Part shown: positions 32,512 through 58,194 of the stretch, one piece after another
Numbering within the stretch: the first letter of the stretch is position 1
How the letters are laid out: every line of letters begins with the position of its first letter
The notes under the pieces: generated by a model
The model's database searches: none
What the model was told of the DNA's origin: nothing
The model's input: only the letters and a program-made list of their open reading frames with translations
Source: Rhynchobatus australiae
Taxonomy: Eukaryota
Assembly (NCBI GenBank): GCA_034780895.1
Contig: JAUZTB010000087.1
Location: 30,095,374-30,159,373 of the forward strand
DNA: 64,000 nucleotides
Reading direction: 5' to 3'
Position numbers and translations under genes: made by a program

Positions 32512-32638
32512 GCAGCAGCACGGTCACATAACGGTTAGCGCAACGCTATTTCAACGCCATTTTTGATTCCCGTTGCTGTCTGTAAGGAGTTTGTACGTTC
32601 TCCTGTGTCTGCGTGGGTTTCCTCCGGGTGCTCCGGTT
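32512..32638 (+). mobile_element. V-SINE (HE1-like) 5' half, cut by a gap
   Basis: tRNA-like head followed by the V-domain 'gagtttgtacgttctcctgtgtctgcgtgggtttcctccgggtgctccggtt'. Confidence 0.85.
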
Positions 32639-32984
32639 NNNNNNNNNNNNNNNNNNNNNNNNNNNNNNNNNNNNNNNNNNNNNNNNNNNNNNNNNNNNNN
32701 NNNNNNNNNNNNNNNNNNNNNNNNNNNNNNNNNNNNNNTTAAATCATGTAATTCTTCCCATATATGATTACTGAGGTAAAGGTAATTAGAAAAGAAATGT
32801 ATTAAATGTTCAAAAAGGAAAGATTTAAAGTGTTTAGAGGTAGCACCACCACTGAAGGTTGAAGCTTCTCACCTCCTCCCTCATTGGTGCAAATCAATGA
32901 AAATGTCCCCTTGACTCTGCTTTCAGTGACAATTTAGAAATGTTGCTGCTATATTGAGTTCAGGATGCTCTGAATGCCCTGAAG

Positions 32985-33240
32985 TACTGAAATCAAAACA
33001 GAAATGCTGGAAAGATTCAGCAGGTCAAAAAATATCTCAACAAGGAGAAACTAAATAAATCTTCTTTGAAATTGAAAATAGGTGGAGATGAAACATTTTA
33101 AACAAGTAAAGAGAGGGGAAAGTTGGGGGGGTGTAATAAAGTACAAAAGGGGCTATTACAGTGTATAAAACTGATCATATTAAATGATAAAAGAAGTGAT
33201 GTCTTTCAGCCAAAGGGATGCTAAAAATGGTAAGAAATAA
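32985..33240 (-). mobile_element. Penelope-like terminus remnant
   Basis: 'aaaacagaaatgctggaaagattcagcaggtca' is the reverse complement of the terminus at 53040-53085. Confidence 0.55.
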
Positions 33241-33249
33241 GAGTGCTCT

Positions 33250-36200
33250 TATCACTTTCACACGGAACGGAAACCCTAAACATTATCCAAAAGGGAATTA
33301 GTTTGGATCATTTAAAAGTGATACCTTTTACGATGCAGGTTTCCAGCTAAAACAATATGAACGGATTAAAGGCTTACTACTAATCGTAGGTACTAGAATA
33401 TTGATTCATTAGACTCTTTATTGGTTGTTAAATGACTGCCTATAACCGATGTTANNNNNNNNNNNNNNNNNNNNNNNNNNNNNNNNNNNNNNNNNNNNNN
33501 NNNNNNNNNNNNNNNNNNNNNNNNNNNNNNNNNNNNNNNNNNNNNNNNNNNNNNATAACCGATGTTATTCTCAGTTACAAAGAAAATCTAAATACTTTGT
33601 TACCAGTGCAAGTTCAAAGAGCTGCCGTTATCTCATGCATTCTACGTCTCCCCACCACACCCCTCCCTTCATTTGGTTCCCTCTCTGTTCGGGGCAGTCA
33701 TGTCGTCCTTGAAAGTTCTCGAACAAACGTTAATGCAGAATCAGTACAAATATATCAACTGCAGTGAAATCAAACTTTATAATGTAAACGCAATTACGTG
33801 CGGACAATTCACGTGTCAGATTGGAGTGTTGAAGGTTCCAGGACNNNNNNNNNNCTGTCCCCAGGTTGAGCTGACATCTCCAATTCAAAGTAATTGGCGA
33901 AGTATCTCCAGTTTTCTCGCAACGGTAACACATCAACCCGAGAACAGTGCTGCATAACACGAGTGTCAAAATGAACGGAAAGGAACTCTTACCGAAGCGC
34001 ATTGCTCTCTCGCTTCTGACTATCATAGATTGAGCATACGTTATTTTGCTACAGTCAACGTGTATCCCTCCTATGCTTGCAGAAATTATTAAGGCATTCC
34101 ACCTCTGTCACCGTTTATGATTAGTCTTCCCGTTTTTTGTTTAAGGCCGTTAGCGAGTTTTTTTTTTGTACCTTACACTTGTAGCGAGCTTTGCATACTA
34201 TTGGTTGCGGAGAGTCCGATCTGCTTTTGGATGGGAGGCATGGACTGGTCATAAATGTTGCAATCTTCTCCAGCAGGAAGGGCGCTAAACTAAGTGAACC
34301 AGTGCACATGGAGTGGTATAATGGAGAAAAAGTAGATAATACAAATTAGCTAACGAAACAAAACATTCAAATCTTGCAACGATGAGTAAAATAATGCAAT
34401 ACATAAAATATATATTCTAACATTTACCAAATCAAGTTAACATTCAAAAGTGGAAGGACGTAGGAAAGCAAAATTACACTGTGAATTAGACTTTATACGT
34501 GCATTTTATATTCCTGTAAAGTTGTATTATAATTATCAACAATAATAATTCTGCTATACAAGAACATTTTGGTATTCGAGGTTAGCAAACGTTTTTAATA
34601 GTAATCACTGATGGTTAATCTTTAAAACTGCTGACAAGGATTCTTGCTCTTCACTAGATTAACAATGCCAGCTAAAGTGATAGCTCAGATATTTGAGAAA
34701 TAAACAGTTTGTAGATGTTCAGCACCATCAATTTTGATTCATCCTTCGCATTTTAGTGTCCTATTGATACCGCCGGAGGTCCTCAAAAGTGACCGGTAAC
34801 TGAACATGTACATCATTAGTTATTGATTTCAATCAAAAGCTAATTCTTTTACATAGCCGACTGCAAGTAATGCAATATATAAAGGTAAATATGTCTACGG
34901 TGGTTGATTACGGGTGATAATAAATTCAAACCTTCAGGAGACCCTACAGCTGAACCCGAAGTGCCCGCCAGTTTTACAGAACAGACCGAATTCGGTGTGT
35001 GGGTCAGCTCCCGACTCCCCAAGAATCGCTGCAGTCCTCGTTAGCTCTGAGCAGGTTTTGGATGACGGGTTGAAAAGGCTTGGTCCGGATATATTTAGTT
35101 TATCATTGAGTAGTCTGGAGAAGAGGGTGCTCCTCCGAATCCCTCAAAAAAAAATCTGGGCTACCACCAATGCCTTCATTTCCATCCTTAACTATCTTTA
35201 CGGCGACAAAAAAAGCCACTGTTATAATCCTTGATTCACCAAAACGTCAGAGCTCCCCGTCAGAAGTAAATGAGACCGAGCAGCAAAATTATGGCCATCT
35301 CTGCCGCGACAGAAAGCGGCCGGAAAATAATTGTGCGTTCCGATGATTCACTATCGCCAATTTAGTAGGAATACAGCTTGTTATACTTGCACCGAACGAT
35401 TTCTTTATGCAAAACACACGGGTTAAAGCAACCCGGTTCCCATTTTGGGGTGAATGTCCATGTTATATATTAATTTTAGAACAACAAATCCCTGGCGGAC
35501 CCCAATTTAGTGAACAGTTTAGATAACCTAATAGAAATCCCACGATGCTGCCTGATGCAATGTTAAATGCAGCTCCTTTCTCTTAAATACAGATGAAATG
35601 TATGAAAGTACACGTTTCCTTTGGTGAGGGGGAAACCCTTTGGCAAACTGGTTACTTTAATAGATTTTCTAGTTATCGCCCAGTTACATATACCATTCCG
35701 AAATCTGCGAATAATTTAACCTTTTTTTGATGGATGAGATAAACAACAGCGTGTTCATTCAGAATACCCGCTCATGTGTGACTCTTTCACTACCAAGTAT
35801 TTTCCTGCGCTGGCGTTTTATTTGTATCTCCTCCCACCCCACCCCGCTATCCCCAATTTCAATTTAACATACTGCAGCATTCCTGACGAGCCATCTATCC
35901 CTTGACACAGTAACAAAAAAAATATGTTATACCTTCTACGGTATTTAATGTGCCTTGGTATACATAGACAAATAATTAAAGTTGAGGTTGTGTTGTTCCC
36001 ATTGATTTGTACTGCATAGGAATTTTATAGTTATTCCTTACTAAAGCATTTACCGTAAGATCACAAGTCATTGTAACGCTGCAAGCTTCTTGTTCATGGG
36101 GCATAAAATAACCGATATTGTTTGAATCGAAAGTAGCAAAATAAACTCTAAAATCGACATTAACAGCCTGTCTTGGATCAAAATCACGCTCAATTACATC

Positions 36201-38000
36201 ATATTTAAATGGAACAGAATTAAAATGATACCGAGGTTGAAGACCAAACAGACATTTAAAATAAAAATCCGTTTTTTGTTTTCCCCGGCTTATCGACATG
36301 GTTCTTTGAAGCTGCGGTCCAGCTTCGTCTAATTTCAGGACGTTATGCAATTCCCAGCGGCCGAATGTATGGCCGCTCACAGGTGCCGAGGCCGGAGCCG
36401 CTGCCGCCCCCGCTGCCCTGCTCTCGGGGGCCGGGCTCTCTGTCCGAGCCGCAATGTGACCAGGCTCGGCTAGCGCCCGCTCATTACCACTATTGCACTG
36501 AGTGAAAAACAAAAAATATCCACAAGATGGAGTCAAGCGAGGAAAAGAGATTCAAAATGGACAAAAATTGGCTGAAAAAAATGATCGTAAGCACTTGGGC
36601 CAGTCTGGGTTTACAGCTCAGCACGGGTCTACCTCCTTCCTTGTGTTGTAGGATTGTGACCTAAAATGACCAGGAATACTGTTCCTCGCGGGATGGACAG
36701 ATTTTGTGAACACCGATTTCATTTATAGTTGTCATTTTATTTGTCCGAAACCGTACGTAATCNNNNNNNNNNNNNNNNNNNNNNNNNNNNNNNNNNNNNN
36801 NNNNNNNNNNNNNNNNNNNNNNNNNNNNNNNNNNNNNNNNNNNNNNNNNNNNNNNNNNNNNNCCAGCACCGCTGGACTTGAAAGATTAGTGGCACCAGCA
36901 ACAGCGGGTTGAAAGGATATTCACAGTCACTTTAAAAGCGGATTTACCTGCAAAACAAACGTTTATGCTACGTTGAAAACATCGCGCAATTCTGTAAACC
37001 ACAGTCTGCATAAAACTTACGTCTGTTACTTTTGTTCTCGAATGCATTCGAGCAACGTCGATTGACAAGAGCGGTTTTCAGATCCGTTTAAATTCCCAGT
37101 CAGGTCTAACGTTAATTTTGGAGCAGCGTCATAATATCGTTGTTGCGAAAGGAACATCCTGGGTTGCAAATGGTTAAAGTGTAACCTTCATTGGTAAATT
37201 ATTTTCATTTCATTCCGGGTTCTTCATTTTAAGGAGAGTTTAGAAACCTTGGCTACGATTCAGTCGATGCTCATATCGTATGGATTTGGTTGTAAACAAA
37301 GTCTTTCGCACGTCAGATTTGTAATGAATGATTGGGCAACATCTGATTGAAAAGGTAGAAATACAAAGGATAAAAATAAACTCTGGCACATAAAACCCCA
37401 GGTATATTTTGCAGCGTAGTGCGAATCAGAGAGCTTGGACGTTTAAAAGGTGGTATTCTCCAACGGAAACATCCTTGGAAGTACATGACATGTCAAATAT
37501 GCGTCTTTGGGTCACATGGCATGTGTAGATGCTCCANNNNNNNNNNNNNNNNNNNNNNNNNNNNNNNNNNNNNNNNNNNNNNNNNNNNNNNNNNNNNNNN
37601 NNNNNNNNNNNNNNNNNNNNNNNNNNNNNNNNNNNNAGATGCTCCAGCTTTCATGAAACTTTGGTCTTAGTTCAGTACCTCTATTTGCGATTTCGCGTCA
37701 GGAGCTACTCGATAAGAAATTCCAAGAAGCAGCCCAAAGAAAACCAACGACCGAACGGCGCGCCAGGTGTTAACAGCGGGAACCGGAGGCGAAAGGAACT
37801 AATTTTTACATTGAAATCGCATTGATTAGTAACAGTAATTCTGGCGATTCTCAAATTTCGGCTGCTAGAACTTCACTTGTCAAGATCAGTTCACAAACTG
37901 AGCTGAACTAAACTGAGAAATCACATAAAGAGCAATGGGTTCAGTCTATAGGCTACTTTTCACAGGGCGCATCAGACGCAGCGCATATATTCCTAAACAG
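33250..38000. promoter_or_regulatory. CpG-retaining, repeat-poor domain (likely germline-hypomethylated)
   Basis: CG dinucleotides are visibly frequent despite AT-rich composition, unlike the flanks; no recognisable transposon inside. Confidence 0.6.
36345..36490. promoter_or_regulatory. Small GC-rich CpG-island core
   Basis: 'gccgaggccggagccgctgccgcccccgctgccctgctctcgggggccggg' is the most GC-rich stretch in the window. Confidence 0.65.
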
Positions 38001-38244
38001 TCTCCTGGCTTGGGCTCAAAGGTCACAATGATCACAAGATGATAGAAATGACAAGACTCTGGGGAGGTCTTGTGGATGTGCTGTGATCTCTACTTTGCCA
38101 TCTCATTCTTCTTAGACAACTTTGTTTAAAACATCGAAAAAGAGATATTTTGTATTTTAAATTATGTTATCAACATTACCTTAATAACTGTGGCAGTAAA
38201 GCATACCATAACATAATGACGTTCAGTCCAAGAATGTAATTCTG

Positions 38245-38930
38245 TCTAGAAAAGTGTGAAGTAATGCACCTTGTGAAGGCAAGAAATTGCGTGTAAAATA
38301 GATTCTTTAAAGCACAGAGAAAACTTTTACATTTCTATAGATCCCTGAAGGCACAAGATAGATTAGATAAGGCGGTTAAGAAGGTACATAACATACTTGC
38401 CTTTTGTGAACAAGGTTTAGAATACAAATTAGGGGAGGCCATGTTAGAACTGTATTAAACACTAAGTAGGCCACAGCCACAGTGCTGTGAACAGTCTAGT
38501 TAGCACACCACAGGAAGTATGTGAAAGCACCAGAGAGGGTGCAGAGAAGATCTGAAGATGTTGCTAGGATTTGAGATTTATATTTAGATGAGGGAGATTG
38601 CAAAGCTGAACTTATTTTCTTTAGAACAAAGGAAAGAATTTAAAATAAATGGTAGAATTTTGAGAGGTCTGGACAGTGAACAGAAATGATCTGTTTTACT
38701 TAGCAGAAAAGACAATAACTAGGGAGCTTAGAGTTAAATTAAATGGTAGAAGAATGCAAGGGGGATTTAAAAAAACTCAATCAGTAGTGGGGTCTGAACT
38801 TACTCCTTGAAAAAAGTGGTGAGACAGAAACCCTCACTGCGTGGATGAGCATTTGCTATGGAACAAGAGATGGGAGGTGGTATTAACCTAAAGTCCATAT
38901 TGATCAGAATGGTCTCTGTGCTATGAATCT
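38245..38930 (+). mobile_element. Decayed CR1 LINE 3' part
   Basis: 'aagtgtgaagtaatgcac' (KCEVMH) and 'gagagggtgcagagaaga' (ERVQRR) motifs. Confidence 0.8.
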
Positions 38931-39600
38931 CTCGGAAGAACATTCCTTCTCTCTTCCCCTTTGATTCTTCTAGCTCAACTCCTTTGTTATATGTTCCTCA
39001 TTCCATCACAATTAAGTCCTCACATTTCACTCACCCCTTTGTTCTTGTGCTCCTCTCTTGCTTCCATTGGGAATGCTTCCATTTATCCCTTTGCTCTGTT
39101 GTTGTGCCTGGATCTTCAGGAAATACTGCTCACAAGCACCCAACCCCATTCTCCTGTCTTCCTTTTTCTATTGGATCTATTTATGGGGAATGAACCAGAG
39201 CAGGTAAGAGCAGTAAAGTAAAACATCTAGCTAAGTGTGTATAATACAGTTCTTTGAGAATAATTGATAAGGACATAAGTATGACAAAGACCAGATTGGA
39301 AAAAGTTTCATTTGAAGAGTTTAGAATAGATTATGTAAAATAAACAAAAATATTGACAAACAATGTAAAACAGCAATGGGAAACTTTTCAAATAGTGTTC
39401 ATAGATTTTTTAAAAAATTCTGTTGATAAACAAGAACAAACCAGTGGGAGACAAAGAATGAAGAAAAGCACAAGGGTTAAACAATGTAAATTAAAGATCA
39501 AACACCAAGTAGATGGACAACATGGATCAGTATGGCAAGAGAGAAGTGATAAAAAAAAGGTATCAACAGGAACTATAAAATTAAAATATTAAGGAACATA

Positions 39601-39992
39601 AGGGAACAGTAACATAATAGTTAAGTTACTGGTCTAACAGCCAGAATTCTGGACTGTTGATCCAGTGACACGAGTTCAAACCCCACCGCAACAGCTGGGG
39701 CATTTAAATTCACGTAAATAAATAAAATCTGGAATTTAGATAAGTTAGTTCAGTAATAGTAACCATAAAACTATTGGATTGTCATAAAACAAAGCCACCT
39801 GGTTCACTCATGTTCTTCAGGAAGGAAATCCGCTGTTCTTTTTCACCTTTATGAGACCAGACCCACCCACATGGTTGGCTTCTGTCTCTTCATTTTAGGG
39901 GGCACTAAGGGGTGGACAATAAATGCCACAAGGACTGTGTGTGTGGCTCAAACATTTTCAACTGTCAGTGATATCCACAACCCATGAATAAA
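39601..39992 (+). mobile_element. tRNA-derived SINE with a probable target-site duplication
   Basis: B-box-like 'gagttcaaaccc'; tail 'ggtggacaataaatgcc...cccatgaataaa'; TAAGGAACA repeated at 39590 and 39993. Confidence 0.8.
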
Positions 39993-41380
39993 TAAGGAAC
40001 AAAAAAATTAAAGTATTTTATAGCATCAAAAGAAAAAGAGCCACAAAGAGGCAGTCAGGATAAAATCAAGCAGTGATGGAGAAAAGACAAAAATATTAAA
40101 TTATTCCTTTAGTATTTACCAGGGAGTTAAGTCAGATGGATATGATGCAAAGCACATATAAAATAATGAGAAGAAATATTAAACAACTAATCAAATTCAG
40201 AGGATAAACCCTGAGTCTGGGTGGATTATTTACTTTAATTTTAAAAGAATACAGGGATGAATGGACATTAATTCATCAGAAAATAGGAAGTACCAGGGGA
40301 CCTTACTTCTCCATTACATTTGATGGCATGAATATTGCCAGATACACATTGCAAGGGAGTCAATATATACCAGAGACTTAATTGGACCAGTCACATAAAA
40401 TAGATAGCTACGGGAATAGATCAGAGGCTGCTTATTCTGTACCAAGTCACTCACCTCCAAATTTCTCTCAGCTTTTCCATTATGTACAAAGCAAAGACAG
40501 GAGTATGATAGAATACTCTCCAATAGCTTTGGTGAAAAGATTAAAGAGCAAACTTCAGACAGGATCTTGTAAGGGCTCTGTCTAATTGAAACAATATTTT
40601 ATCCTTTTTGTATTTTTTAAATGACGACCATCCTTGTAGTCTTTGGATTATTTTATATCCATGCCCTAGATTTTAGTAATTTATATACCTAGATATTTAA
40701 ATTCCATTGCTCTCCCTAATGTGTCAGAATCTTTTTAACTCATGCTCCAGCTTAATGCTTTTGAGCTGTAGTGACTCAAGATATAAAAGTTTCTCAAGTT
40801 TAATCAAGATCAGTCCACAAATCCTCATATTCTACAGTCCTAACACACTACCCAGGCTGCCATTATCTGCTCTATACTTATTTTATGGTCGTTATTTACC
40901 TCAATTTTTATCAGAGTAATATAATCTCGCTTTCATTTGTTATGACATTTTAGTACACTTACCTGTTGTATTTACATAAAACTGAACTTTCTTTTGGGCT
41001 TGCACTTTGTACTCAGTTTAAAAAAATTAGTCACCTCAATCTCTTATTCCTCAGATTTGACCAATGCAGAGAAAGGAGCAGATATGGTATAACTTTTCAG
41101 ATTCTTCACTATATTTGTTTCAGTTCTGCCATCACTTTGATATGCTGTGATCTTTTTAAGTAGCCTTACAGGGTATGTTCAGACCTGTCATGCATTTGCT
41201 GAATTTTGCAGTTATTATGTCCAGGATAAAATATGGCAATAGAGGAGATTGAGATGATAAAACCATTATAGTTATAATAGTAATTGTCTGCACTAAAGAT
41301 GATTTTTAAAAAAAAGTCACAACGTGAAATTAATATTATGGAGACTTAAATAGAAGGCAGAATCAGCATCAGGTACTTAC

Positions 41381-41438
41381 CTGTAGTGCCAGAACCAGGG
41401 CGAAGAGCCCCCACTTTTTGACAAAGAAATTATTTTTG
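41381..41438 (-). ncRNA. Candidate 58-nt exon of a minus-strand spliced transcript (lncRNA or micropeptide)
   Basis: Acceptor 'gcattttcctgtag|' and consensus donor 'CAG|gtaagt'; open in frame with the 44918-45020 exon. Confidence 0.6.
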
Positions 41439-44239
41439 CTACAGGAAAATGCAATCACATTTAAATCATTTGTTAAATATAACTTTATTATTTTTAGCAG
41501 TTATCATTTGCAATATATTTTAATAATCTTTCTCAGTACTGTCCACTGTTTTGTGGATTTTCCACCCCCGCACCACCCCTCCCAATAATGATCCCAACTC
41601 TCCCCATCCAACTTTTAGATCCTGCCACTTTTGGTGCTTGCAAATCAGATTAGATTGGTGATATAGCTGTTTTTAATGTGCATACATTTAGTATATGCCT
41701 GATTATCATGTAAAATATTAAAAATGCACAGCATATTTTTATAAAACTGTGCTAAATGCTTTGAGGTCACATACCTTAGGAAGTATTCATCTCTCAAGAT
41801 CATTCCTTCTAACACGTAGACCCCATGTCAGGTGGTGTCTGAATGAATCTGAGAGAGTCTGGTTCAAAAAAAACTAGATGCAGATGTGACTAGTAAACCC
41901 TTTCAACCACACGCATTACTTTTACTACAAAATGCTTTATATGTAAGTATAGGTATACCATGTAAATATTTAGTTAAGAAATGACTACCACTGTTCTGTA
42001 GGAAATTCGAGTCTCTCTTTTTAAATGAGATTTGGAACTTGGCATGAAATCAGTCAAACACATTCCAGTGATATTTGTAAACTTTTGTCCAGCAGCTGTA
42101 GGCAATACTTTCGACATCATCAATGATTTGTGCAAGATGTGCTAGACTGGCCACTAACATCCATCTAAACAGTGGTTGGATGCTGCTTGCACTGTAAAGC
42201 TAGTTGTTGGGAGTTGGGTTTCCAGGCTTGAGCAATTATTCTGTTCATCAGCCTCCTAGTGTTCTAGAGTGCCAAAGTTAGACATTTCTACTCTTGTTAC
42301 ACATCAAGGAAGGGAAGGGCACAAAACAGTCAAACAACAAACAAGCTTTTCATTAGCAAACAAACAAAATAGCCCAAAATGCACAATCCACACAAATAGG
42401 AGTACTAAGTGCCAAAGTTGTAAGATTTAAGGCAGAGAGCAACAGATTTTTAGATATTGAGGGAATCAAGGGGTATGAGGTGAGTGAACGAAAGTGATGT
42501 TGAGCAGGAACAGTGAAAAAATTGCAGCTAATCAATTCAAGAACACACATTTAATACACAAAAAAGAATTNNNNNNNNNNNNNNNNNNNNNNNNNNNNNN
42601 NNNNNNNNNNNNNNNNNNNNNNNNNNNNNNNNNNNNNNNNNNNNNNNNNNNNNNNNNNNNNNNNNNNNNNCAAAATTATATTTAGTTCTATGAAAATTTA
42701 ATGGATTCAGCTACATTAATCATGTAGGATATTTTCTAAGTACAGTGAGGTTTCTAGGCTGTAAGTTTAATTTTTGTTAAAACAATCAATCTGTTTTTCC
42801 TCATACAAAGAACGAACATTTTTTTTCTTATTGCACTATATATCAAATGAAAAGTTTCTGAAAATGTTCCACAAATCTAAATTGTAGCAGTGACAAAAAT
42901 AAAAGCAGGAATAATAAGTCATTTAGTCTGCATTTTTTCCCAAAGACTTTGATTCAAGAACACTAAGCAATCTTTTGAGTCTTTCACATACAATTATCGA
43001 GTTAAACATCCTCCTCCAGAGTATAGACTGAAACAGCTGCTTCACTGTAAGCTTAATGTAAGTTACTGCAGTAACATAAACTTATGGCAGGAAGTGCTGA
43101 CCCATGTATTTGCCAGGATAGTCAAACAGAAACATTTATTTTTTTCCGAGAAGAGGAAAAGAAATAAGAGTATTGATGCTACAAGCAAAAGGATTAACCT
43201 TTTGAGTACTGAATTTCATGCCACTTTTCATTTGGCTCTGCTTCCCATCACCCAATATCTATAAGGCCATCAGTCGCTTGAACAGTCAGAAATCTGAAGA
43301 CTAACAACAATGAAAGAAAGGCTATAAAACTTCCTACAATAGGACAATTAAATGACAGATTGGGCGCACCGCCAAATCATACTTTTTTTCCAAGATTTAG
43401 AAGAAACTTAAATCTGGCCTAGAACACGCAAATGCTCCTAACAAAGTCTCACACATTTGGCTTACTTTAAACAAAACTGCCCCATTGCTTGACTGTCACT
43501 GAACCATGCTGTAATGCACAGTTCTTAAAAAAAGATATTGCACCTGCAAACAGAAACAAACAAATCTATTGCACAGTGGTAAATGACCTCACCAAGGTAC
43601 TTGGAATATGCCTTAAAAATCCCTATACATTACCATCATTGTATAACATTGTACAGACATTTACACTCAATAAACAAAATAAGCATAATTTGGCCTGTGA
43701 TTCAGTCTAAGGAATTTTATAATAAGCAATGCACTTAATACATAATCAATAGAAAGCTGTCCTAAATTTTCAAAATGCTGAATTTATAATTGTACTTTAA
43801 ATTTTAATTTGAAAATACATGATTCTTAATAAACAAAAGAGAAAAATATGAGAGCCAACAGTGTGGTGCAAAGTGTTGTTTCAATGAACATTTCTTCAAA
43901 AGTGTCCCTAATTTACTGGCTGGGGTCTAACTTTGCACACACTTAACAAAAAGTAATAACTTCTCTTCAAAAAAAAATCAGAATTGTAACTTTTAAGACT
44001 GCAGTATCCCTCTTTGCTGCCCTGCATCTGTTCAATTTCAATATCATTAAATGTCACCTTTGCTCTACAAAGAGCTTAATTTTGCTTTCTTGAACTTGCA
44101 ATAAGTACTTGGTTTTGCACACTCTATTACAAGTACCTGGACATTTAGAATACACCCACTTGTTTCACTATTTCAAACACACAGGCAATATTCTGAGAAT
44201 TTATAATTTCCCATCTTTTGCTCTCTTCTATAAAATTCA

Positions 44240-44480
44240 CTAAGTCACCTGGGTCATACACTGGCCCTATCTGAGGTCAATGCATGGTTTGCTCCAGGAA
44301 CCACTGCTTTGCCATTGGCTAAGTCCTGGGATATACATGGCCTTACTTGCCTTTCCTCTCTATCCGGAAACCCCAGGTCTCTGCTGCCCTCCTTGCTATA
44401 GGGCAGCTGAGATAAGAGGTTCAGCCAGATGGGACTGGAACCTTTGAGTCACAAATGTGAAGATACAAATACTGGTGCAC
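44240..44480 (-). mobile_element. Possible ancient tRNA-derived SINE remnant
   Basis: Minus strand 'aaggttccagtccc...tatctcagctgccc' resembles a B-box and LF-SINE-like body; higher GC than the flanks. Confidence 0.3.
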
Positions 44481-44917
44481 CAGTGTACTGTGCTACTTCA
44501 CTGCAGAGCAAACTAATTATTAAACAAAAAGTTGTTTTTTTCATATAAAAAATAAATTATAAATGTAAATGAAATAAAGAATATCCTGAGTACCAAACAT
44601 TAAGGGGTTAAAATTTCTTCTGTGAAAACTTTCCTTTAACAGAAATCCAGTCTTCTTACAGTACTCTGAACAGATGTTTTACATTTAATTCTCTGAAGAG
44701 GATGGCAGCCATGTTTATATCGAGCAGTGTGGGAAAATACAAGTAGTTTAACATTTCCAAATCCACTGTACTCAAAGTACTAGAAAATACTGAGGTGGGA
44801 ACTGACTCTTTTGATTTATACCAAATAGTAAAGTCTTGATGCTGGACAACAAGAAGAGATAATGCAGCTTCACTTTTGATATGCATGTGTAGATTTTAGA
44901 AATATTTAAAGTATTAC

Positions 44918-45020
44918 CTTTGCCAAGCAATTCCCAATGTATCGTCACTGGCACTGGGGTATAAATGCCTGCCGTTTTGATTCATGGTCCAGTCACAAAT
45001 CCTCAGCTGTCAATTGAAAC
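44918..45020 (-). ncRNA. Candidate 103-nt exon of the same transcript; contains ACC-ATG at 44985
   Basis: Acceptor 'ctcactgatag|' (weak pyrimidine tract), donor 'AAG|gtaata'; ATG opens MNQNGRHLYPSASDDTLGIAWQ. Confidence 0.6.
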
Positions 45021-46247
45021 CTATCAGTGAGATTGGGTGTCGAGCAGAACTAGACTCCAAGAATACATGCAAAAAATTCACTTCCATTAAGAAAGGCATT
45101 AGTCTGATTAAGATGCAACACAGATTTCAATCAAGAAATATTAGAAAGTCAACCACATTGGTTCAACATTCCAGACAGACAGACAGAGTAAAGGTTAACA
45201 AGAGAAAATGTTCATTTAGTTTGCTTTAAGGAACCATTTAAGTAGCTGGAACTGGCAATTCATTTCTTCCAGTCCAGAAACCCTTTGTGTGGAGCTGTGA
45301 AGTACTGACGTAGGAACCTACACTGATCTTGGATGGCTTTACAGCAGATCCCTCCAGAAATTCTGCTTAGGAGAAATATTTGGGATCATTAATATTCTTG
45401 TGATTAAAATTCATGATTTTTCTGTGAAAGCAGAATCTTCATCAGAATTTTAAGGAAACTTGATTCACTATGAAGTTCTCTACTGAAAATTCAAGTATAT
45501 TTCGATACACAGAGCACATTAAGTGATTCATTTTAGTGTTGTATACGTTTTCAANNNNNNNNNNGTAGATCAACAAAGGAGAGAGTACTTTTATCCAAAT
45601 TTATTTGGAGATAAAGAGCTAAAATTAAACATTCAGTGGTAATTATACATCTAAACACTATGATTTAATATTGATTTGTTTGTATTTTTTAAAATAATAA
45701 TTTCACAATGAAAGATTACAACCAAATCAGCACGATATGCTTATTTTTTTGGATAACATCATTCGTAAAATCTTCCACACATTTGTAAGGGAGTTGATTT
45801 GGTTCAATGATTTTTTGTATCTACTTTCAGTAATATTGCCATGTATAATAATTTGGTGCAAGATGCCAATCAATTTTGAAACATTTATAGATTGATCATA
45901 TCTTTTATTAAACTTAGCTGCAAGTCAAAAAGGTTAAAATATGATTTTTCATCAAATTTACTTTCATTTTGATTCTCATCTCTCAGAGCTGCCCTATAGA
46001 TCCTGAGTCAGGTTGGTAAAATTATATTATATATAAATTTTACTCCTATGGCAGTATCTGTGGGCACATATGTACAAATCTGTTTTTAAATTATACATAA
46101 TTTTTAAATGTTTGACAATCATATTTGTATATTAAAAATCTTGTGCATAGGGATATTCATTTTGTGTGTCACATTTACATTAGAATTGTTTGCATAACAT
46201 TTTGCAATGAGAGCTGTAATGGATTTCATTAAGATCTCAATACTTAC

Positions 46248-46370
46248 CTGCAACACTAAATTGTAATTATCTGGTATGTCACCAGGAGACACTACCTTTT
46301 CCCTACTTTCTTGGGAAACTGAAGAATTTGTCCATTGCTTTCTATTCTCAGTAACTCAAACCTATAATGT
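46248..46370 (-). ncRNA. Candidate 123-nt non-coding exon
   Basis: Acceptor 'ttttattttgcatatttcag|' and consensus donor 'CAG|gtaagt'; stop codons in all three frames. Confidence 0.4.
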
Positions 46371-48839
46371 CTGAAATATGCAAAATAAAATTATTTACTT
46401 ACATGTTTTCTAATAATGAGCAAGTATTCAACTTAAATTTTCTTTAAATAAAAACATTTATTAAAGATATTCAAAAGCATTAGCTCTCCTAAAATCCTGC
46501 AGTTTAACAAATTTTATTTCCAGAACCATGACTCTGTCATTAAAGACATACCAGGCTGTCTGATAGTATGTCCAATTTTCCAGGTTGCACTGGCAGCATT
46601 TAAGTCAGGTGAGCCACTGAGACATCCTTCAACATCTACCAACGTCTTGTCAATTGTTTTTCAACATCATTTCAAGAAACATTGGATGATGGAGTGACTT
46701 TTTTTAATTGACAAGAAATGTGCTTCTATGGGAGAGAAATAATAACAAACTATTGTTTACACGACAGTTACAGATTCTTCCTTGCATGTTCAGAAAGTAG
46801 ATCAGCCACCTGGGCTCAAAATTGTTGTTTGCCAAATTTGGTTTTACACAGCAGCAGGTTGAACATCTACCCATATTATCTTTCCTCATCCTAATATGAA
46901 TTGATTTTAAAATAGCTAAATATTAATGCAAATGGAATTACCAATATTATCACTTGACTTTNNNNNNNNNNAGAAACTGCAAACACAATAAGCATTAAAT
47001 GCTGTCATGTAAGGAGGAGATTTTCTCAATTAAATTTGAGTTCTATCAAATGAAAAACATTAAAACTTTAAAATACCAATAGTTATCACCAAAATTTGAT
47101 GAATGATTTGAACATTTACATTTTCTAACAGCAATTAATTAGAAACATAATTAAAAGTTTAGAAACATAATTATAAGTTAAACAGGCACAGAGACACACT
47201 TGTAAAAGATTCATAAAACACTACATTTTATGTCTGCATTAATCTTTTAAAATTTGAAAAATAGTGCTATTACATAAAGCATTCAATAGTACTGTCAGGT
47301 GGACACCAAGAATGACTTCCAAAACTTGTATCCACCTCAAGACGTGCCAGATATTAGGTTAGCCTTCCACAGTTCTACAAACTTGGCTGTCCTGTATATT
47401 TACCCTGGTCCCACCAAACACAAAGCCCCATTTTAATAATAACAATTTTCAGTATCTCCAACTAAGCTTCACCAAACACCACGCCACTTCCTAATACTAC
47501 ATTCTCCAATACTTTCAAAGTGCATTAAATTAATCACATTCTGAAATAAAAATGAAAATGATGAAATCACTGAACCAAGTCATGAAGCATCAGTGGAAAA
47601 AGGAAATAATATTGGATGCTAATTCAGCCTCAGGCCTGAAATATTAACCTTTTTTCTTCTTTTCTGTTCTGAGCATGCACAGCATTTGCTAAATGCAGAA
47701 ACGTCCAAGAAATATAACTCAACAATTGGGTGTTTCCAAATGTCCAATATCAACCTACAACTGGTGCCATTGTGAGCTGTGTATTCTCAAGTTTGAAACA
47801 TTTAAAGATATAAATTAAATGCTATTATAATAAAGGAAATCCATTTATGATTTTCATAGAATAGTGAACAATGTTCCGGAGAGCTTTGGAGTTTAATCAT
47901 CAATACACGAGTAAAGATCGCTATCAATAATGTTTTAAAGATATCATTTGTTTCAGTCACTTGTCAGCTTTGATGGGTTTATTCCCATTACCAATTAAAG
48001 CAGAATATAAAGGAAACACACATCTTAGTACATTTTATAAGAGTATACCTAATGATATAAACTGATTGTAAAAATCAAACCTCATCTCTATCTCTTTTAA
48101 ATTGGCATTCAAATTGTTTTTGATATTACTAGTTTTTTAAAGCAAGTCCTATACAGTCCTCATTTTGCTCAATTATATTGAATTGCGGTATTGCTACAAC
48201 ATGTAATCTTTAACCCATTTTGTAGTTTTTCATTTTTTTGAATAATGTATTTTAAAATGGCCAAACTTGTATTCAGGGCCAAGTTTAGTATTACTTTCCC
48301 CTTAAGAGTATAAGGCGCTTTAGACATCTTAATCATACAATAAAGGTTGTGCAAAATTGGAGATTAAAATCTGAAATTATGTAAGTATTCACCATTGGTC
48401 ATATATTACTTCTCACCACTCTTATAATAAGGTTATATGTAAATCAAGGGCCAGGGCAATGTGCATTAAAGATTGTTTAAATTATCTGACCTTACAAATA
48501 GGTACAAAATCATAAAAATTCAGATGTCAGCACTTAAAGGTATCATTCAATACGTCTACACAAGCCAAATGTGAAACTAATTGCACTATCCCACTTTCTC
48601 CCTATAGCCTTACACATTCCTCCATCTCAAATATTTACTTAATTTCCCTTAAAAACAAAGGTTTCTGTCTCAGTGACTTGCTTTACCAAAGTGCGGTCAC
48701 TCCTAAAACCCTTAGAACAAAGACATTTCTCCTCTCTACTCTCATAGTGGTAACAAAATTGGCAATTGCTCAGCACTAGATCCTTACAAGTAAGTGACCT
48801 TAATCCTTTTGTTCAATCAATNNNNNNNNNNNNNNNGAG

Positions 48840-49030
48840 AACTATCAAGTAAAATCTGACAATGAGCTACATTAGGGGATATTAGACGCATAACCAATAA
48901 TTTGTCAAAGAGGCAGGTTTTAGGTGGTACCTTGAAAGCAGGAGAGAGTTGAGAGGCTGCAAACTTTTGGGGTGATACTTCAGTGGAGAGATTAAACTGG
49001 AGGATCAAGTGGCCAGAAACTGACACAGTA
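48840..49030 (-). mobile_element. L2-type LINE 3' fragment
   Basis: 'PAFKVPPKTCLFDK' resembles the L2 C-terminal FK.LLKT.LF motif. Confidence 0.6.
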
Positions 49031-50304
49031 CAACATCATAATTTTTAAAAGCTTGATCAACTTTCAACATACTTTGCTCCAACTGTATTTCACAGTTCTT
49101 ATGTCGTAACTATGTTTCTGAAGAATTAATGCTGAATTGATACTCAAAGTTTAATAACTTTCTATAATTAGGTCGAACAAAACTGCACCTGGCATTCTGT
49201 GGCCTAAACCGGTATTGTCCAATACATGAATCACTCCTCACCTGTGGCTAATTGGGAATCCCACATGCGACTGCACTTTTGATTGTATGCTTTCCTTCAC
49301 TGGTTACTATTTATTTGTTACCTGCCGAAATAAGGTTTAACACAGGTAAACATACCAGACTTCAGAATCATGGAACTAGCAGCAACTTTATACGAGAACC
49401 AAACTATGATTACAGTCAGCTCAGGAGATCGGAATTATCGGCAGAACTCAGTAAAAGCTAAGGTCAACCAAAAGGCAAGTGGCATATAACAGCGTGCATG
49501 GGCGAGTCATCACGTTTAGCAACATAACCGAGGGCATCAAAGCACCGCTTTAAAGCGCAGTGCAAACGTCTCGAAGCCGCTACGAAAAAAGGCTTTAAGC
49601 AAACGAGTTCGCGTCAGAATTCCTGACTTGGTGTAAAAAAAACTGTCAAGTTTTGTTGGATGGCTGTCTATTTGTAAATATAGACACGTAGTATGTGTTA
49701 TTGATAAGTCATTTTCTTGCACAACTAGAGCACGCGCTAAACTAATGTAGCTGTTATTACCGATTTAAATCGGACAACACCGACCCTATCGATGCCTCCG
49801 AAAATACTCAGCGCAGTAACATGTGAATGTTCATTAACGATGTAAAATCAACTAATTTGCGGCATTAGAACTATCTGTCCGTTGCTTCACTGGATCGTGC
49901 ATTCAGGAGGGAACACGAACAGAAGGAATCACAGGCGCCAAACAGTTACAGCCAATCGGCAACTCAACGATCTTGTATTTCCATAAATACGTTATTTATA
50001 ATCAAAAGATGATTATCTTTTATAGCTTTTTCTATTAGCACCCGGACTCCAGGGGAGCTATAGATTTGATTCCCTAAATTTCTTCATCCATCTCTTTTCT
50101 TTGGATGCATCTTTTCATTGTATCGTTGCTCCAAAAACACATTTACCACCCGACTGCCCACTCTTGAGTTTCCACATTCCAGGCGACTCTAACATTCGTC
50201 ATCGGTGCTGCCAAGCCTGGGTCATCACATTTCAAGGTTGTGCTCCTTGTACCAAAGCAAGAGTGAGACACGCACCCGAAATATTTTGAACAGGCCTGAT
50301 CTCA

Positions 50305-50745
50305 CTACCTTTAGGAGATTATACTCGGAATAGAGCGGGTACAGCGAAGGTTCACCAAATTGTTTCTCGGGATGGCGGGATTAATGGTTTGAAAAGAGAG
50401 ATTAAGTAAGCTGGGTCTGTACTATCTGGAGTTTAGAAATATGAGAGACCTTATGAAAATGCACAAAGACTTGTGGGGCTTGAGACGACAGATGCAGAGT
50501 TGATATTTCCCTGGGCTAGAATCAGGGGTGGGTTGTGGAAACGGCGATTCAGGACAAATATGGGAAGAAAATTCTTTACCCAGAGAACAATGACTTTAAA
50601 ATTTACTCTCCAAAAAGGCTGCCAGGTCTCAATCATTCAGCATATTGATACAAATTTCGTTACAAATAGAATCATAGGTTGGATGCAGGAAGCAGTGCTG
50701 AATTAAAACATCAGCCATGAATGGCGTACACCTACTTTTATTTTT
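50305..50745 (+). mobile_element. Decayed CR1 3' fragment
   Basis: 'gagcgggtacagcgaaggttcacc' (ERVQRRFT) and 'RFRTNMGRKFFTQR'. Confidence 0.8.
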
Positions 50746-51659
50746 TTCTGCTCTTCTCCATCAATTAAACTAGACCGGGCACTGATCCTTTCGGGCAGAA
50801 CTTCGGTCAGAACTTACGCCATTTTCAAACTGCGGTTGTATTCACGTTAATACACACCGACAGGAGCGCCATCCATAAAGCTGCATTGCCAATACACAAT
50901 TTTTCTGAATCACTAAGAAATCCCACATTTCGTCTGCCTTATTTGCTGAATTTCCTTTTAGAATCCACACCGTAATTTTTCTAACCAACATTTCACGAGA
51001 CGCCTTTCTAAAAATCCGTCTACTAGATTTCGTTTACTTATTCATAAAATCTAAATAGCACCTTTTCCTATTAGCATGAATTTACATTATGCAATTTTAA
51101 GTTCAGATTCATAATATTTTATTCCCTCAAATTCGATAATTTGTGCATCTTTGTCGTGTATATATGTTTTGCTCTCTGAATTATGTTTGGCGAGTTTCCC
51201 ACTGATGTTTCAATTAACTTGGGTCGGACAGATCCCCTCTTCCCAAAGAATTTTTCCTCTTTCTTGTCCCCATTATATGAATCATGATCTGACTCGTAGT
51301 CGCTTTTTTTTCGGTAGTAGCTTTTTCTCACCATCCCGTTCAATTTACTCCCGGAGAGTTAAAAATAATTCCAAAACCTGCTATTGATGACGAAATTATT
51401 TTCTTTTTACCACTACTTTAGTTCGAAACCTACTTCAGCTAGAGGCGGTTCATGGTTTTATGAAATAATCCATTGCTTTCTCAGCGGTGAAACGAAAAGC
51501 CGCCATAAATTCAAACAGCATAAACAAAAAGACACACTGAAGATGTCAAAATAATATGGTTAAGGACAATAGTTGGGGGAGAGCTGTACAGTAATCAGAT
51601 ATAGCCCAGACATGAAGAATGATCCTTGCTCGCTTCTGAGAGGGCATTTCCGTCTAACC

Positions 51660-53087
51660 AGTGAATGAAAATAAAAAAATCCTTGCTAACTGCCGGCTTA
51701 ACATCGACCGTCTTGACTTTTCCACTCCCCTCTCGTGCTCTAACCTACCCTCTTCTGAACTTGCAGCTCTCCATTCACTAAGAATCAACCTTGCAATAGC
51801 CATCAAACCCACTAACATGGTCTGGCAAACTGACCTCTATCTCACAAAGGGCAGGCGTAAGCTCTCAGACACCTCCTCATACATCCTTTTGGATCTGGAC
51901 CTCTCAAATGGAAGATCAGGCCATGGTCTTCCAGACAGTCACTGACCTCAGGAAACCTTCGCTTCACAGCTTGCAGACTTGTGGTGTCCCAATCCTGCAC
52001 AGCCCGCTTCTATCTCCTGTCCAAATTCCACAAGCAAGACTGCCCTGGCAGATTCGTTGTCTCCGTTGTATTTGCTCTAATAAAGACACTTTCCGTACAG
52101 GTGCCACTGAAATGTCTTCCCTCTTCCTGAGCCATGGCTTCGCCTCTACCATTGTTAACAAAGCCCTTGATCATATTCTCGTCCATTTCCTGTGCCTCTG
52201 CTCTCCTCCAAAACAAGGTTAGAATTCCCTGGTCATCTCTTTCCACCCCGCCAGCCTCCACATTCAACAGATCAATCTCCACAATGTCTATCACCTTCAA
52301 AGAGCCTCTTATCATCGGACACATCTTTCCTCTCCTCTCAGCATTTCACAGCAACTGTTCCCTTTATGACTCCCTGGTCCATTCTCCCATTCCCATTAAC
52401 AATCCCCTCCCCCACCTTCTTACAGCACTTTCTCTTATAACCACGGGCGATGAAACACTTGCCCTTTCACCTTTTCCCTTCCCACCACCCAGGGATCCAA
52501 ACAGTCTTTCCAGGTGAAGAAGCGATTCACTTGCACTTCTTCAATCTAGTGTACAACATCTGGTGTTCACGGTATGGTCTCCTCTACGTTGGAGAAACCA
52601 AATGAAGATTGGGTGACCATTTTGCATCTGGTTAAGTCCTGAGCTTCCGCTTGTCTATCAAGTTAATTCTCCATCTCACTTCCACTCTGCCTGTTGGTCT
52701 GTGTCCACCTACATTGTTACAGCGGCCAAAAGCAAGCTTGAGGAATGACACCCCACCTTCCATCTGCACATGTGGCAACCTCTGAACTCAGTTCTACAAC
52801 TTCAGTTAACTTGATTTTTTTTCTGTCTGTGTCAGTCGTCTATCTGTGTTATTAATTCAGCTGGTTTGTTTGTTTATTTCTTTTTCTCTCCGGGGGTGGA
52901 GGACATGCCCATCCTGACCTGCTGGATATGTCTTCCTGCTCGGCATTTCACAACTCCTAACTTCTTTCGTCGGCTCCTTCCCAGTTCTAACCAAATGTCT
53001 TCCACCTGAAATGTTAACTCTGTTTCTCTTCCCACAGATGTGGTCTGACCTACTGTGTATTTCCAGCATTTTCTGTTTTTATTTCAG
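51660..53087 (+). mobile_element. Penelope-like retroelement, internally deleted
   Basis: 'IDRLDFSTPLSCSNL.SSELAALHSLR..IAIKP..VWQTDLY'; GIY-YIG remnant FQVKKRFTCTS..VYNIWCSRYGLLYVGETK at 52508-52625; terminus at 52980-53087. Confidence 0.85.
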
Positions 53088-54699
53088 TTTAACAACAACG
53101 TTGATGAAAAGTTGCGCGCTGAGCATCAGTTTCCCCCACACACACTTAAGGGTCCAGTAATGGTTACGGAGGCTGTTGAGAGCCCTTCATTAAAAAAAAA
53201 ACAACTTTCTTAAAAACTCAATGAATCCGTCCCCACATCGCAGCAATACTTTGCAGTAAATACTGTTTCAAACGATAGTCGGAATTTAGCACGCTCTTTT
53301 TTAAAAGGCGGAGGGTGAAGAAATAAATAAACTTTACTGGGCATCATCCCTGTTTCCCTTCCAATCCCTGACTAAAAGTCACGGGGAATAGTTGTTCCTT
53401 TACAAATGATCAGCACCGAGAGAATAGTCGCAGAGCAGCCTGATCTTCCCTTCAGTCAAACGAAGACCCAGAAATCAGTTCTCTGAAATCCGTTGTTCAA
53501 CATTCTTGTATCAACTGCTAAACTCCGTGCGTATCACTGCAGCGGGGGAAACGTCNNNNNNNNNNGTCAGGGTAGGTTACAGAGTTAGCCAAACATCGCA
53601 ACGACTCCGTGTAACACTGGAGGATTCTGGAGATCTATGGGTTGCCAACCAAGTTGTAGGGTTGTATTCGGACAGTCGCTGCCAGCCGGTGAATCATTTT
53701 AGATTGCTTGTGCATTTTAGTTATAAGCAACGGAATTAGAAGCAGGATTTTCCCCATCACATTTAGTTCCTTGAATTGAACGATTGCAGGTTATATTCTT
53801 ATATTCTGTTTACTTTTGATCGGCGCGTACAGAGGTTACCCAACTTGGTGATTACGTTTAAAACCACGATCTACAGAAATAAACTATAGTAGATGATTGT
53901 GATTTGTAGCTCGTAAGAAGATGTGCACAGTCCCAGACAAATTGAATTTCTCGTTGGTTTCCACCCGTTCATAATACAGTTGGGGAGCTCGGACATTCGT
54001 TCTGTGCGGGCCAATCATGGCTCTTCCGATTGTTCTCAAACCGACCGCTCGGCTTCTTTCTGTGTCCTGAATTTCTCCTCACAAGCGATCAGACGAAGTG
54101 CAGATTTTATCGACTACTCTGTTCGCAAAATAACCTGATTTCCTCACGTTTTTTGATTCTCAAACATGTAATTAAAAAACGTGGCTGTTCAGTTTGAAAG
54201 AGAGCGCCCGGCACGACCCCCGGGAGCCCACCAGTGCTCTGATCACTACCATCCTGTCGCTCTGAAGGCATCGGCAACTTTTTCTGAATCCATGTCAAAA
54301 GGCAGAAAGCAAAGAGCAGTAATGATCGGATCCAAGAAACTAGCTACTCAAACCGGTGTGCATGATGTACAATTCCTTCAAACTTTCGAACACAACGTAT
54401 TCAATTGCTGTTGATTTTTTCTTACACGATACGTTAAATGATCATAAACGTCCCCCCAAAACTCTAGAAATTGAAAAGAAAAACTGCTAAACTTTGTACT
54501 TTCCAGTAACATCCACGTTAAAGCAAGATTTAGAGGAGAAACATTATCGGTTATCGCCAGAAGTTACCGAATCCATAAAGAGTTACCAGCCCCGTCTGTT
54601 TACATTAGCGTGCTTTCAACAGAAACATGCGTTGGGCTGCCACTACCGTCCCCATCCCCCATTAGGAAGCCTTGAAGCTCTGCGCTTCTTTCTGCAACA

Positions 54700-56240
54700 A
54701 AGATCCAATTAGTTCCCCTCCAGCAACACTCTCATCTGCCTGGCAGAACTCGTTCTTATCCAGAACAACTCTTTTATTCCTCGCACTTCCAACAATTCAA
54801 AGATGCCTGTCTCTTTCCTGGTACCACTCCCCAATGCAGCGACAACTGTACTGGTACCGTGGAACTCGCCAATTTTTATCATCTTTGCTACTAACTTCCA
54901 CCCCTCTCTCGTATTCACAGACCATTCTGGACGCGTCTTCCTTTTCTGGATCTCTCTGTCTTCTTCTCAGGTGAGCTACATTGACTACAATGCCATCCCT
55001 TTCTCCAGGTTTCTCTGTCTCTGCCACATCTGAAAATGTGGCTTCCCTTCCACTGCAGTTGATAGAGCCTGCTCTCCTATTTCCTCAGTTCCCCGTACTT
55101 CTGCCCCCACCCCACTCCCTCCAAAAGACAGTTCCCCAGTCCTCGTCTTTCACTCTACCCAGTACATCATTTTCGCTAGCTGCAACAGGATCCCGCTACT
55201 AGCCACAAGTTCCTCTCTTCAACTCTTTCTACGTTCCACAGGGACCACTCTCTCTGTTACGCCCTTGTCCACTAATCCCTCCCCACCAACCTTTACTTGA
55301 CCCCTGGAAATTTCCCCTGCAACCTTAGATGTTCCTACATCTCCTCTCTCACCACCATCCAGGGATCGAAACAGCCTTCCAGATGAGGCAAAGATGCATG
55401 TGCACCTCCTCTACTGCATTTGGTGCTCCTGATGTGACAGCCTCTACATCAGCAAGACCAAGTGCAGACTAGGCAACTGGTGTGCAGAGAACCAGCTCTC
55501 TGTCCACAATGGTCATGCTGAGCTCCCAGTTGCATGCCATTTCAACTCCCCATTCCCACACCAACCTGCCCATCCTCAATCTTCTCCACTGCCAAAGTGA
55601 GGCCAAATGCAAACTAAAAGAATAATGCATCATATTCTGCCTAGGTAGTCCACAACCCAATGGTATGAACATTTGAATTTTCCAATTTCAGGTGACTCTT
55701 ACGTCCTTGTGTTTTTTCTCAACCCCCCCCCCCTTGCAATCTAGCTTTGTTCCTCCCATTTTTGCTCCCTCTACGTACTACCCATACACTTCACCCACCG
55801 GACCCCCCCCCCCACCAAATCTGGTTCCACCTGCCCTTCATCTCTCCCTNNNNNNNNNNNNNNNNNNNNNNNNNNNNNNNNNNNNNNNNNTATCACCCTC
55901 CAGCCTTTGTCTTCACCTTCCCCTTCCCCACCTGGTTCTATCTGTTTCCTTTTTGTTTTTTTTTCCTCGTCTGCTTCCACCTATCACCCACCTGTCTTCC
56001 AACCTCACCCCTCCCCCTCCTTCACTTGGCTCCTTCTACCTATCATCCTTCACCCCATCTCAGTCCACCTCAGTTATCTCTGCCTTGGTCCCACCCCTCC
56101 CCCTCTCCTCTTTAAAGCAGCTATCTTCCCTCTACACTCAGTCCCGATGCAAGGTCTCGAATCAAAGTTGACAATTCCTTTTCCCCACCACAGATGCTGC
56201 TGGAGCCAGAGAGTTCCTCCAGCAGTTTGTTTTTGCTGTC
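54700..56240 (+). mobile_element. Penelope-like retroelement (RT and GIY-YIG remnants, pyrimidine-rich spacer, terminus)
   Basis: 'FIIFATNFHPSLVFT' RT motif; GIY-YIG remnant at 55377-55480; terminus 'cagtcccgatgcaaggtctcga...cacagatgctgct...gagttcctccagcag'. Confidence 0.85.
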
Positions 56241-57014
56241 ACTACCATCAATGTCTCACAAACTGCAACCGAGCTTGTGACAGGGTAGTTCAATGTTCAT
56301 TTAGAAGCAAACTTGGTAAAACCCAGACCTTTCTTGGAAAAAGAGCCATGGGATAATTTTTATATACAACTTCCATTTGAGCAAGTGGATGGACCCTGAA
56401 CAATGAATTACTTCCTTTTCAATGCATTGCCAGTTTGTATTGTGTAAAATACTCAAATAATGGACTGGATCCTAAAATCACATTTTCACTCAGAAGGTTG
56501 AACCTACCTACAGAGACTGATTAACATAGTAAATAACTTTGTTGCTCATACACATTCAATTATTTGTCAGGAAAATGGTGGAAGCAAAGTTTGCTGGGGG
56601 AAAAAAAACTGCTGAGAGCCAATTTACCTTAGATTTTGGATTGGGGTTGTTGGGAGTTTCCTGAAGGCTGACAGTGAGAAGGATGAAGGATGCTTCACAT
56701 GAGATCCTGACTGGGCTGGCTCTTTGAAAGAGCAATCTATTTAATGACNNNNNNNNNNNNNNNNNNNNNNNNNNNNNNNNNNNNNNNNNNNNNNNNNNNN
56801 NNNNNNNNNNNNNNNNNNNNNNNNNNNNNNNNNNNNNNNNNNNNNNNNNNNNNNNNNNNNNNNNNNNNNNNNNNNNNNNNNNNNNNNATCCATCAAAACT
56901 CTGCTGCTTATTTTTAAAATCCCTCAAAGTCCTGTTCGGCCTACACAAGTTCGCATTTCAGTACCTCAAATCTTAAAATCTCATTGTTTTAATTCCTCCT
57001 TTCTTGACAACCTC

Positions 57015-57225
57015 TCGTGCAATTCTCTGCCAAGGGAAACAGTAGAGGCTATCTCATTAAATATATTTAAGACACACTTAGAGATTTTTGCATAGTGGGG
57101 GAATTAAGGGTTATGGGGAAAAGGCAGATAGGTGGATCTGAGTCCATGGCCAGTTCAGCCACGATTTTATTAAATAGCAGAGCAGGCTCGACAGGCCTAC
57201 TCCTGCTCCTATTTCTTTTATTCTT
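57015..57225 (+). mobile_element. CR1-type LINE 3' end, within a probable older L2 remnant
   Basis: 'aattctctgccaagggaaacagtagaggct...aagggttatggggaaaaggcag...ggcctactcctgctcctatttct'. Confidence 0.85.
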
Positions 57226-58194
57226 TCACCTCTCCAGGCATGTGTTTCTCTAATTTTGACACTTTCCTGCTCTTATTCACTCCAACATCAGTCATCGTGC
57301 TTTTGGCTATTTCTGTCCTACACTTTAGAATACCCACACTATATTTCTTGCTTTTCTCCTCAGGATAGTGATTTTACTTTGATCATTTTCTTCATTATTG
57401 GTGGGAATTTGAAGAGTAACTGATCTGCTAATTTCAAAACTGAGTTAAAAGAACACAAAGACTAGTAGAAACAAAAAATGAAATGACTTTATCAAAACCT
57501 TCAACCACCCAAAGCTCTCATGCCTTTTTTTATTTAAAGACAGAAAAAATAGTATTAAACAATCATTTCTCCAAAAAGAATAAAATGAAAGTCACAGAAG
57601 TGTATTTTGCAAGATAATATTGCCAACCACCAAATGCCTGCCACCAAAAAAATGGTCATCATTTTGCATCAAGAAATATTGTTAAGAGCTTAAATTTGGT
57701 ACATTAATCAAGTTAATTTACATACTTTTATAGTGTTGAACAAGTGAATAGCTTTAAATGTATGGGTCAAATTCACACCCAAAATTATTCAAAAAATGTT
57801 TCTAGGCTTGAAATGAAATTTATCACTTTAAAAACATTAATTTTCACTTAATGAGTAAATTGTCAAGCAAATTGTAAAGACAAAATAAAAATTATACACT
57901 GCAAGGGCAATCAGCATATGCCAGTTCAAACTTGGAGAAACCAGATCAGAATCAAATTTTGTCTCTGCACAATGTATTCTTTATATTATTGGTCAACAAG
58001 TGCATGCAAATTCTCTATTATATTCTATCAACTTTTAAAATCAACAGCAATCACTTTACATCCAACTACTCCTGTTACTTGACATTTTTTTAAAAAAAAA
58101 GGTTACAATGAATAGAAGTCTAAACTTCTTTAAGCTGGCTATACGTAAGTTTCTTTTCAAAACTCCATTCTCTGTACAAGTGTAAAACTCACAA

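Follow-up and report, generated by a model that had tools for sequence, protein, structure and literature searches.

The closest described systems include PANTR1, MA-linc1 and CHASERR. PANTR1 (linc-POU3F3, LINC01158) maps to human 2q12.1, where it lies upstream of POU3F3 at a distance of 4 kb (PMC7281347); a passage of a further paper on this transcript (PMC12205996) gives no conservation data. MA-linc1 (MALINC1), a noncoding RNA encoded upstream of PURA on the other strand and in head-to-head arrangement with it, is reported to act in cis as a repressor of PURA (PMC4695032). CHASERR is a compact multi-exon lncRNA which lies less than 2 kb from the start of CHD2, the neighbour it tunes in cis, and its human sequence can be aligned by BLAST within amniotes only (PMC7798263). 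An overlap of lncRNA and DNA control element is common: in mouse-human comparisons promoters coincide with 53.9% of the lncRNA regions that are conserved and with 21.8% of those that are not (PMC7671363). Loss of one PURA allele leads to a neurodevelopmental syndrome, and the minimal deletion at 5q31.3, of about 101 kb, covers PURA, IGIP and CYSTM1 (PMC4650292, PMC7990775). The literature searched, mostly non-subscription papers, describes neither an RNA nor an enhancer of conserved sequence in the PURA-CYSTM1 interval; supplementary catalogues of conserved elements or lincRNAs may list the locus.

The window, that is the whole stretch of 64,000 nucleotides analysed here, corresponds to C87:30,095,374-30,159,373 of the Rhynchobatus australiae genome, and 100 kb was fetched on either side of it. 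The initial annotation had quoted a 57-nt segment and suggested that its exon, at 44918-45020, may belong to PANTR1, in which case exon and splice sites would be conserved from cartilaginous fish to mammals. The segment maps to 45009-44953 on the minus strand and is single-copy, with one match in the 2.23-Gb genome. A PurA gene, which we take to be PURA from its N-terminal signature and from its neighbours, is encoded on the minus strand at window-equivalent positions 88,074-88,943, 24 kb past the right end. The candidate exon is on the same strand as PURA and 43 kb downstream of it; the gaps that separate the element from the PURA coding exon are of 7-154 N each and none is a 100-N join. Two PURA paralogues, PURB-like and PURG-like, sit on C75 and C64. 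About 650 kb beyond PURA, on the opposite strand, is a neuregulin gene (4 of 8 matches). To the left of the window lie a PARM1-like gene and CYSTM1. The CYSTM1 coding sequence has exons at -73.7 and -90.2 kb, and the gene has a CpG island of its own. IGIP was not recognised among the listed ATG frames of at least 40 codons between the window and PURA (L002-L004). The ray gene order agrees with NRG2-PURA-IGIP-CYSTM1-PFDN1, the order given for human 5q31.2-31.3 (PMC4650292), and the locus is the counterpart of that block.

The PARM1-like gene is a plus-strand gene that spans -39.1 to -7.5 kb (L015:850-2227 and L012:1667-2531) and comprises a signal-like first exon, a mucin exon, a membrane exon and a tail. 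Its Pfam match in this genome is weak (E 0.64), PF17061 is found on two of three of its relatives, and a better PARM match is present elsewhere in the genome (C64 at 139.0 Mb). A search with the protein returned 3 of 2750 candidates; these are ray proteins, the nearest being that of Pristis pectinata (89% identical), and the relatives in Pristis and Rhinoraja are labelled 'uncharacterized'. The genes given for the human interval in PMC4650292 include no PARM1-like gene, and the ray gene may therefore be a paralogue lost in mammals.

The candidate exon lies in a repeat-poor block at 40001-52000 (0.5% repeat cover), the block that holds the exon candidates and the CpG-island pair. Repeats were taken to be sequences that resemble others within 664 kb of this genome; on that definition cover is 0.5% in the 11-kb windows that begin at 40001 and 41001, the lowest of 253 sliding windows (264 kb; median 16.3%). 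CpG-rich domains are found at 33301-38100, 49201-51800 and 52901-55000, and the islands flank the block. The pair at 49201-55000 is the likely promoter of a minus-strand transcript; it contains a putative YY1-like motif, after which comes a donor at 50818. In the island at 33301-38100 a GC-rich candidate first exon ends at a minus-strand donor at 36381; no gene was identified there. Among 320 windows scanned for folding in 38-49 kb, the segment 39561-39755 ranks first in stability (z -4.1 and -3.3, with 25 shuffles each); it adjoins a short repeat-like match and is possibly an old inverted-repeat element.

Splice sites were scored with our own position weights, using consensus frequencies. The window has three perfect donors, at 46248, 41381 and 40963; they belong to the minus strand and fall within 5.3 kb around the element, and the plus strand has no perfect donor. 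The background is 1 in 351,522 and 6 in 682,520 strand-bases, which gives the cluster a simulated P of 0.00003-0.001, or of 0.01 under a looser background rate. On the minus strand the candidates are an upstream exon end at 46248-46270, where the donor at 46248 is perfect and the 5' limit may be anywhere from 46270 to 46370, an exon at 43466-43543 with a top-scoring acceptor, a downstream exon at 41381-41438, already named in the initial annotation, whose donor is perfect (3 of 3475) and whose acceptor is fair (250 of 4239), and an exon end at 40963-41011 with a perfect donor at 40963 and a weak acceptor picked by eye. The plus strand also has three strong donors within 38-51 kb. Strong plus-strand splice signals in the repeat-poor block, at 38974-39203, 42479, 46503-46608 and 48748-48789, possibly belong to antisense transcription out of the island at 33-38 kb.

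At the candidate exon (44918-45020, minus strand), GT follows 44918 and AG precedes both 45020 and 45006. The donor at 44918 scores 6.4, equalled or bettered by 164 of the 3475 minus-strand GT sites of the window, and the acceptors at 45020 (score 3.3) and 45006 (score 0.5) are reached by 474 and 1076, respectively, of the 4239 AG sites. Scores of this size are common in the window, so that the borders of a 44918-45020 exon are by themselves not above chance. The 5' end is uncertain, with acceptors at 45006, 45020 or 45103; branch-point spacing prefers 45006 or 45103 to 45020, and 45103 has the cleanest architecture (score 4.5, no AG in the 40 nt upstream, a branch-like A at -28). Its use would give a longer alternative exon of 186 nt at 44918-45103, in which a 29-codon upstream frame (45099-45013, minus strand) would, as read by eye, end at one stop that is in frame with the ATG of the exon and eight codons ahead of it. 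The proposal of an exon with splice sites at 44918-45020 thus holds as regards the presence of the segment, its single copy and the GT and AG dinucleotides, but the donor is of moderate strength and the acceptors are weak. The 5' limit lies perhaps past 45060.

Public sequencing runs were compared with the region 44880-45060 by means of 15 sampled words. Among 24 rows, 23 have some of the words and 16 have half or more. With a possible source run left out, the share of the 15 words is 0.80-0.87 in runs guessed to be DNA, from four other organisms, and 0.73-0.80, or 11-12 of 15, in five runs that are RNA by the program's guess only (three organisms, three studies). Under random sampling the probability of at least 11 of 15 words is 0.005 for an 89-nt exon and 0.04 for a 103-nt exon; it is 0.69 for an RNA that ends at the donor but passes 45060, and 0.64 for one that runs past the donor instead. 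The 186-nt exon from the 45103 acceptor, with an expected share of 0.75 against the observed 0.73-0.80, fits best. The share in the RNA-guess runs is above the expectation for the 89- and 103-nt exons, and it is therefore likely either that the exon extends further than 44918-45020 or that these runs represent unspliced RNA or DNA. Six other rows, five of them metagenome RNA runs from bird, chicken gut and mammal, have 4 of 15 words; this would agree with the impression of conservation in bony vertebrates given in the initial annotation, but it is under the five-word level and was not counted as evidence. A high share would say little on constraint if, as may be so, the organisms that share words are all closely related. 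Contigs of four of the five RNA-guess runs, compared with 40000-44930, covered no candidate exon and contained no joints, and in this interval one run gave two pieces of 38-41 nt with loose ends; the filter removes some contigs, so the hole in coverage proves nothing.

A structured small RNA (snoRNA, scaRNA, miRNA or tRNA) was considered and rejected, there being no family match and no unusually stable fold. Rfam gave no match at gathering score in the whole window and, at a loose threshold, one chance match each (E 0.73) in 30000-44900 and 45040-58000. No tRNA was found, and the element folds no better than its shuffles (z -0.8 to +1.5, 14 folds).

The reading we favour, tentatively and at somewhat less than an even chance, is that the stretch is an exon of an unannotated spliced noncoding RNA co-oriented with PURA, the sequence of which is probably kept mainly as a DNA control element. 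Polymerase would start in the CpG island near 50.8 kb and run in the direction of PURA, and the transcript would be spliced from exons ending at 46248, 44918, 41381 and 40963. The dense transcription-factor and core-promoter motifs of the exon would act in cis, as an enhancer or as an antisense start site, and the activity of the element would be adjusted by transcription across it. The most likely target would be PURA, 43 kb away, which is proposed for its proximity and its role in PURA syndrome, the suggested link of the element to the gene being one of proximity alone. If this is true, a conserved control element or RNA in the PURA-CYSTM1 interval would be a candidate for noncoding variants and for the tuning of PURA dosage.

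The motifs in question form a promoter-like array on the plus strand at 44921-44993. Motifs of the NFI, CCAAT and CRE types are joined there by a TATA box (44960) and, 31 nt downstream of it, an initiator, with a predicted start at 44991; the pattern was noticed after the fact. TATA matches number 347 in 1,158,856 strand-bases, 7 of them with an initiator and 2 with both an initiator and an upstream CCAAT, the element being one of the two. The element has 8 of 20 motif classes, a level found in 0 of 1825 GC-matched tiles and in 0.3% of 584 window tiles, a rarity that is inflated because the motif list was drawn up after the element had been seen. The array would suit a pure DNA element, either a conserved enhancer or a TATA promoter on the plus strand, intronic to or outside any minus-strand transcript and with exon-like ends due to chance, and so would the weak acceptors, the common donor strength and the shared words that reach beyond the proposed exon. 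We regard this as somewhat unlikely. If the five runs are RNA, a plus-strand RNA starting at 44991 predicts about 4 of 15 words and not the 11-12 observed (P of at least 11 words, 0.0001). In addition, no plus-strand donor scoring at least 4 is found downstream of the predicted start before 45638, and a minus-strand donor stands at the edge of the element.

The exon has a single ATG (44983-44985, minus strand), which is in an RCC Kozak context and opens a frame that continues to the donor for 22 codons and 2 nt; both properties are combined in 22 of the 2439 ATGs of the window. Joined directly to the exon at 41438-41381 the frame is prolonged. Eight exon chains were tested, and all six that include this exon have an open frame of 45-75 codons, in which hydropathy averaged over 11 residues peaks at 1.9-2.7. 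On a further reading, which we consider unlikely, the stretch would supply the start codon of a microprotein, unannotated and about 45-75 residues long, with a short hydrophobic part encoded by 41438-41381. The 41438-41381 exon is open in two of three frames, so an in-frame join is cheap, and inclusion of 43543-43466, in which no frame is open throughout, would end the frame at 28 codons. Three protein searches left the second-exon frame unmatched, although the collection returns ray proteins for the PARM1-like gene: the 43-residue frame holding this exon had no match among 1.84 billion representatives, and in the further searches none of 8 candidates matched at 77-2000 aa and no candidate was returned at 23-76 aa. 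Short proteins are often missed by annotation pipelines, and these blank searches are therefore weak. A Pfam scan of 200 frames (199 of at least 55 aa outside repeats and outside the element, and the second-exon frame) found none over the curated cut-off, with weak sub-threshold matches in 2 of 109 and 2 of 91.

Quite improbable, in our estimate, is a more far-reaching reading in which an undescribed jawed-vertebrate gene downstream of PURA is conserved from rays to mammals. Its key exon would combine an antisense TATA promoter with the start of either a membrane-touching microprotein of 45-75 residues or a cis RNA that sets PURA dosage, and its human counterpart would fall within the 101-kb minimal 5q31.3 deletion region.

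It seems very doubtful that the stretch is under no deep constraint, being ordinary intergenic or intronic sequence common to close relatives only, with its patterns picked afterwards. No distant homologue was seen, no copy of the element was present in 400 kb near the PURB-like and PURG-like genes, and all motif statistics are post hoc; the repeat depletion, the donor cluster and the RNA-guess runs that hold the words are, however, independent of the motif choices. The stretch is real and probably functional, of an ordinary kind, and misnamed.

Membership of PANTR1, as suggested in the initial annotation, is highly improbable and can be rejected: the gene beyond position 64000 is PURA and not, as had been expected, a divergent POU3F3, the other neighbours are the PARM1-like gene, CYSTM1 and the neuregulin gene, the closest POU match is 17 Mb from the element, and the genome holds no second copy of the stretch. 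The genome has 19 POU-domain matches. C87 carries three of them, at 13.1 and 92.6 Mb, and the four best full-length ones, which we assume to be class III, are on C127, C2, C11 and C68. Four uninterrupted POU matches of 109-111 bits (C11:73.4 Mb, C87:13.1 Mb, C127:65.4 Mb and C64:107.5 Mb) are consistent with four class IV genes. MRPS9, presumably to be expected on the far side of POU3F3, gave no sign of that synteny, none of three ribosomal S9 matches being on C87, a weak test as MRPS9 itself was not located. A full-length uninterrupted ribosomal S9 match on a separate scaffold (C3499:77609-77983) possibly comes from a bacterial contig in the assembly. The setting had been described as gene-free and rich in CpG domains: the CpG domains are real and the window has no Pfam-recognised coding frame, but it is not a gene desert, with PURA 24 kb and the PARM1-like gene 7.5 kb outside its ends. 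The looser idea of an exon of a spliced noncoding minus-strand transcript in a cartilaginous fish keeps circumstantial support; its PANTR1 identity does not survive. The result is mainly corrective, in that the stretch is not PANTR1, and such elements are common in vertebrate genomes.

The human noncoding annotations LOC101929719 and AC011379.2 (the latter by a confirmed pairing of name and identifier ENSG00000254363) presumably lie between IGIP and CYSTM1, the matching interval; the interval in the ray differs in that the PARM1-like gene is between the element and CYSTM1. Like PANTR1, the candidate unit is a putative multi-exon noncoding transcript from a CpG-rich region near a nervous-system gene, but it is located downstream of PURA, on the strand of PURA and in the 5q31-equivalent block, not at the position of PANTR1 beside POU3F3 (PMC7281347). 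With MA-linc1 it would share the property of being a noncoding RNA at the PURA locus; identity with MALINC1 was rejected, as the element is downstream and co-oriented and not head-to-head upstream (PMC4695032). CHASERR, as a compact lncRNA acting on its neighbour in cis, serves as a model for the candidate unit, which, unlike CHASERR, is downstream of the gene in question and ends near an island without an identified gene (PMC7798263). In being short, single-copy, motif-dense and set in a repeat-poor block, the element resembles the vertebrate conserved noncoding elements that overlap lncRNA exons.
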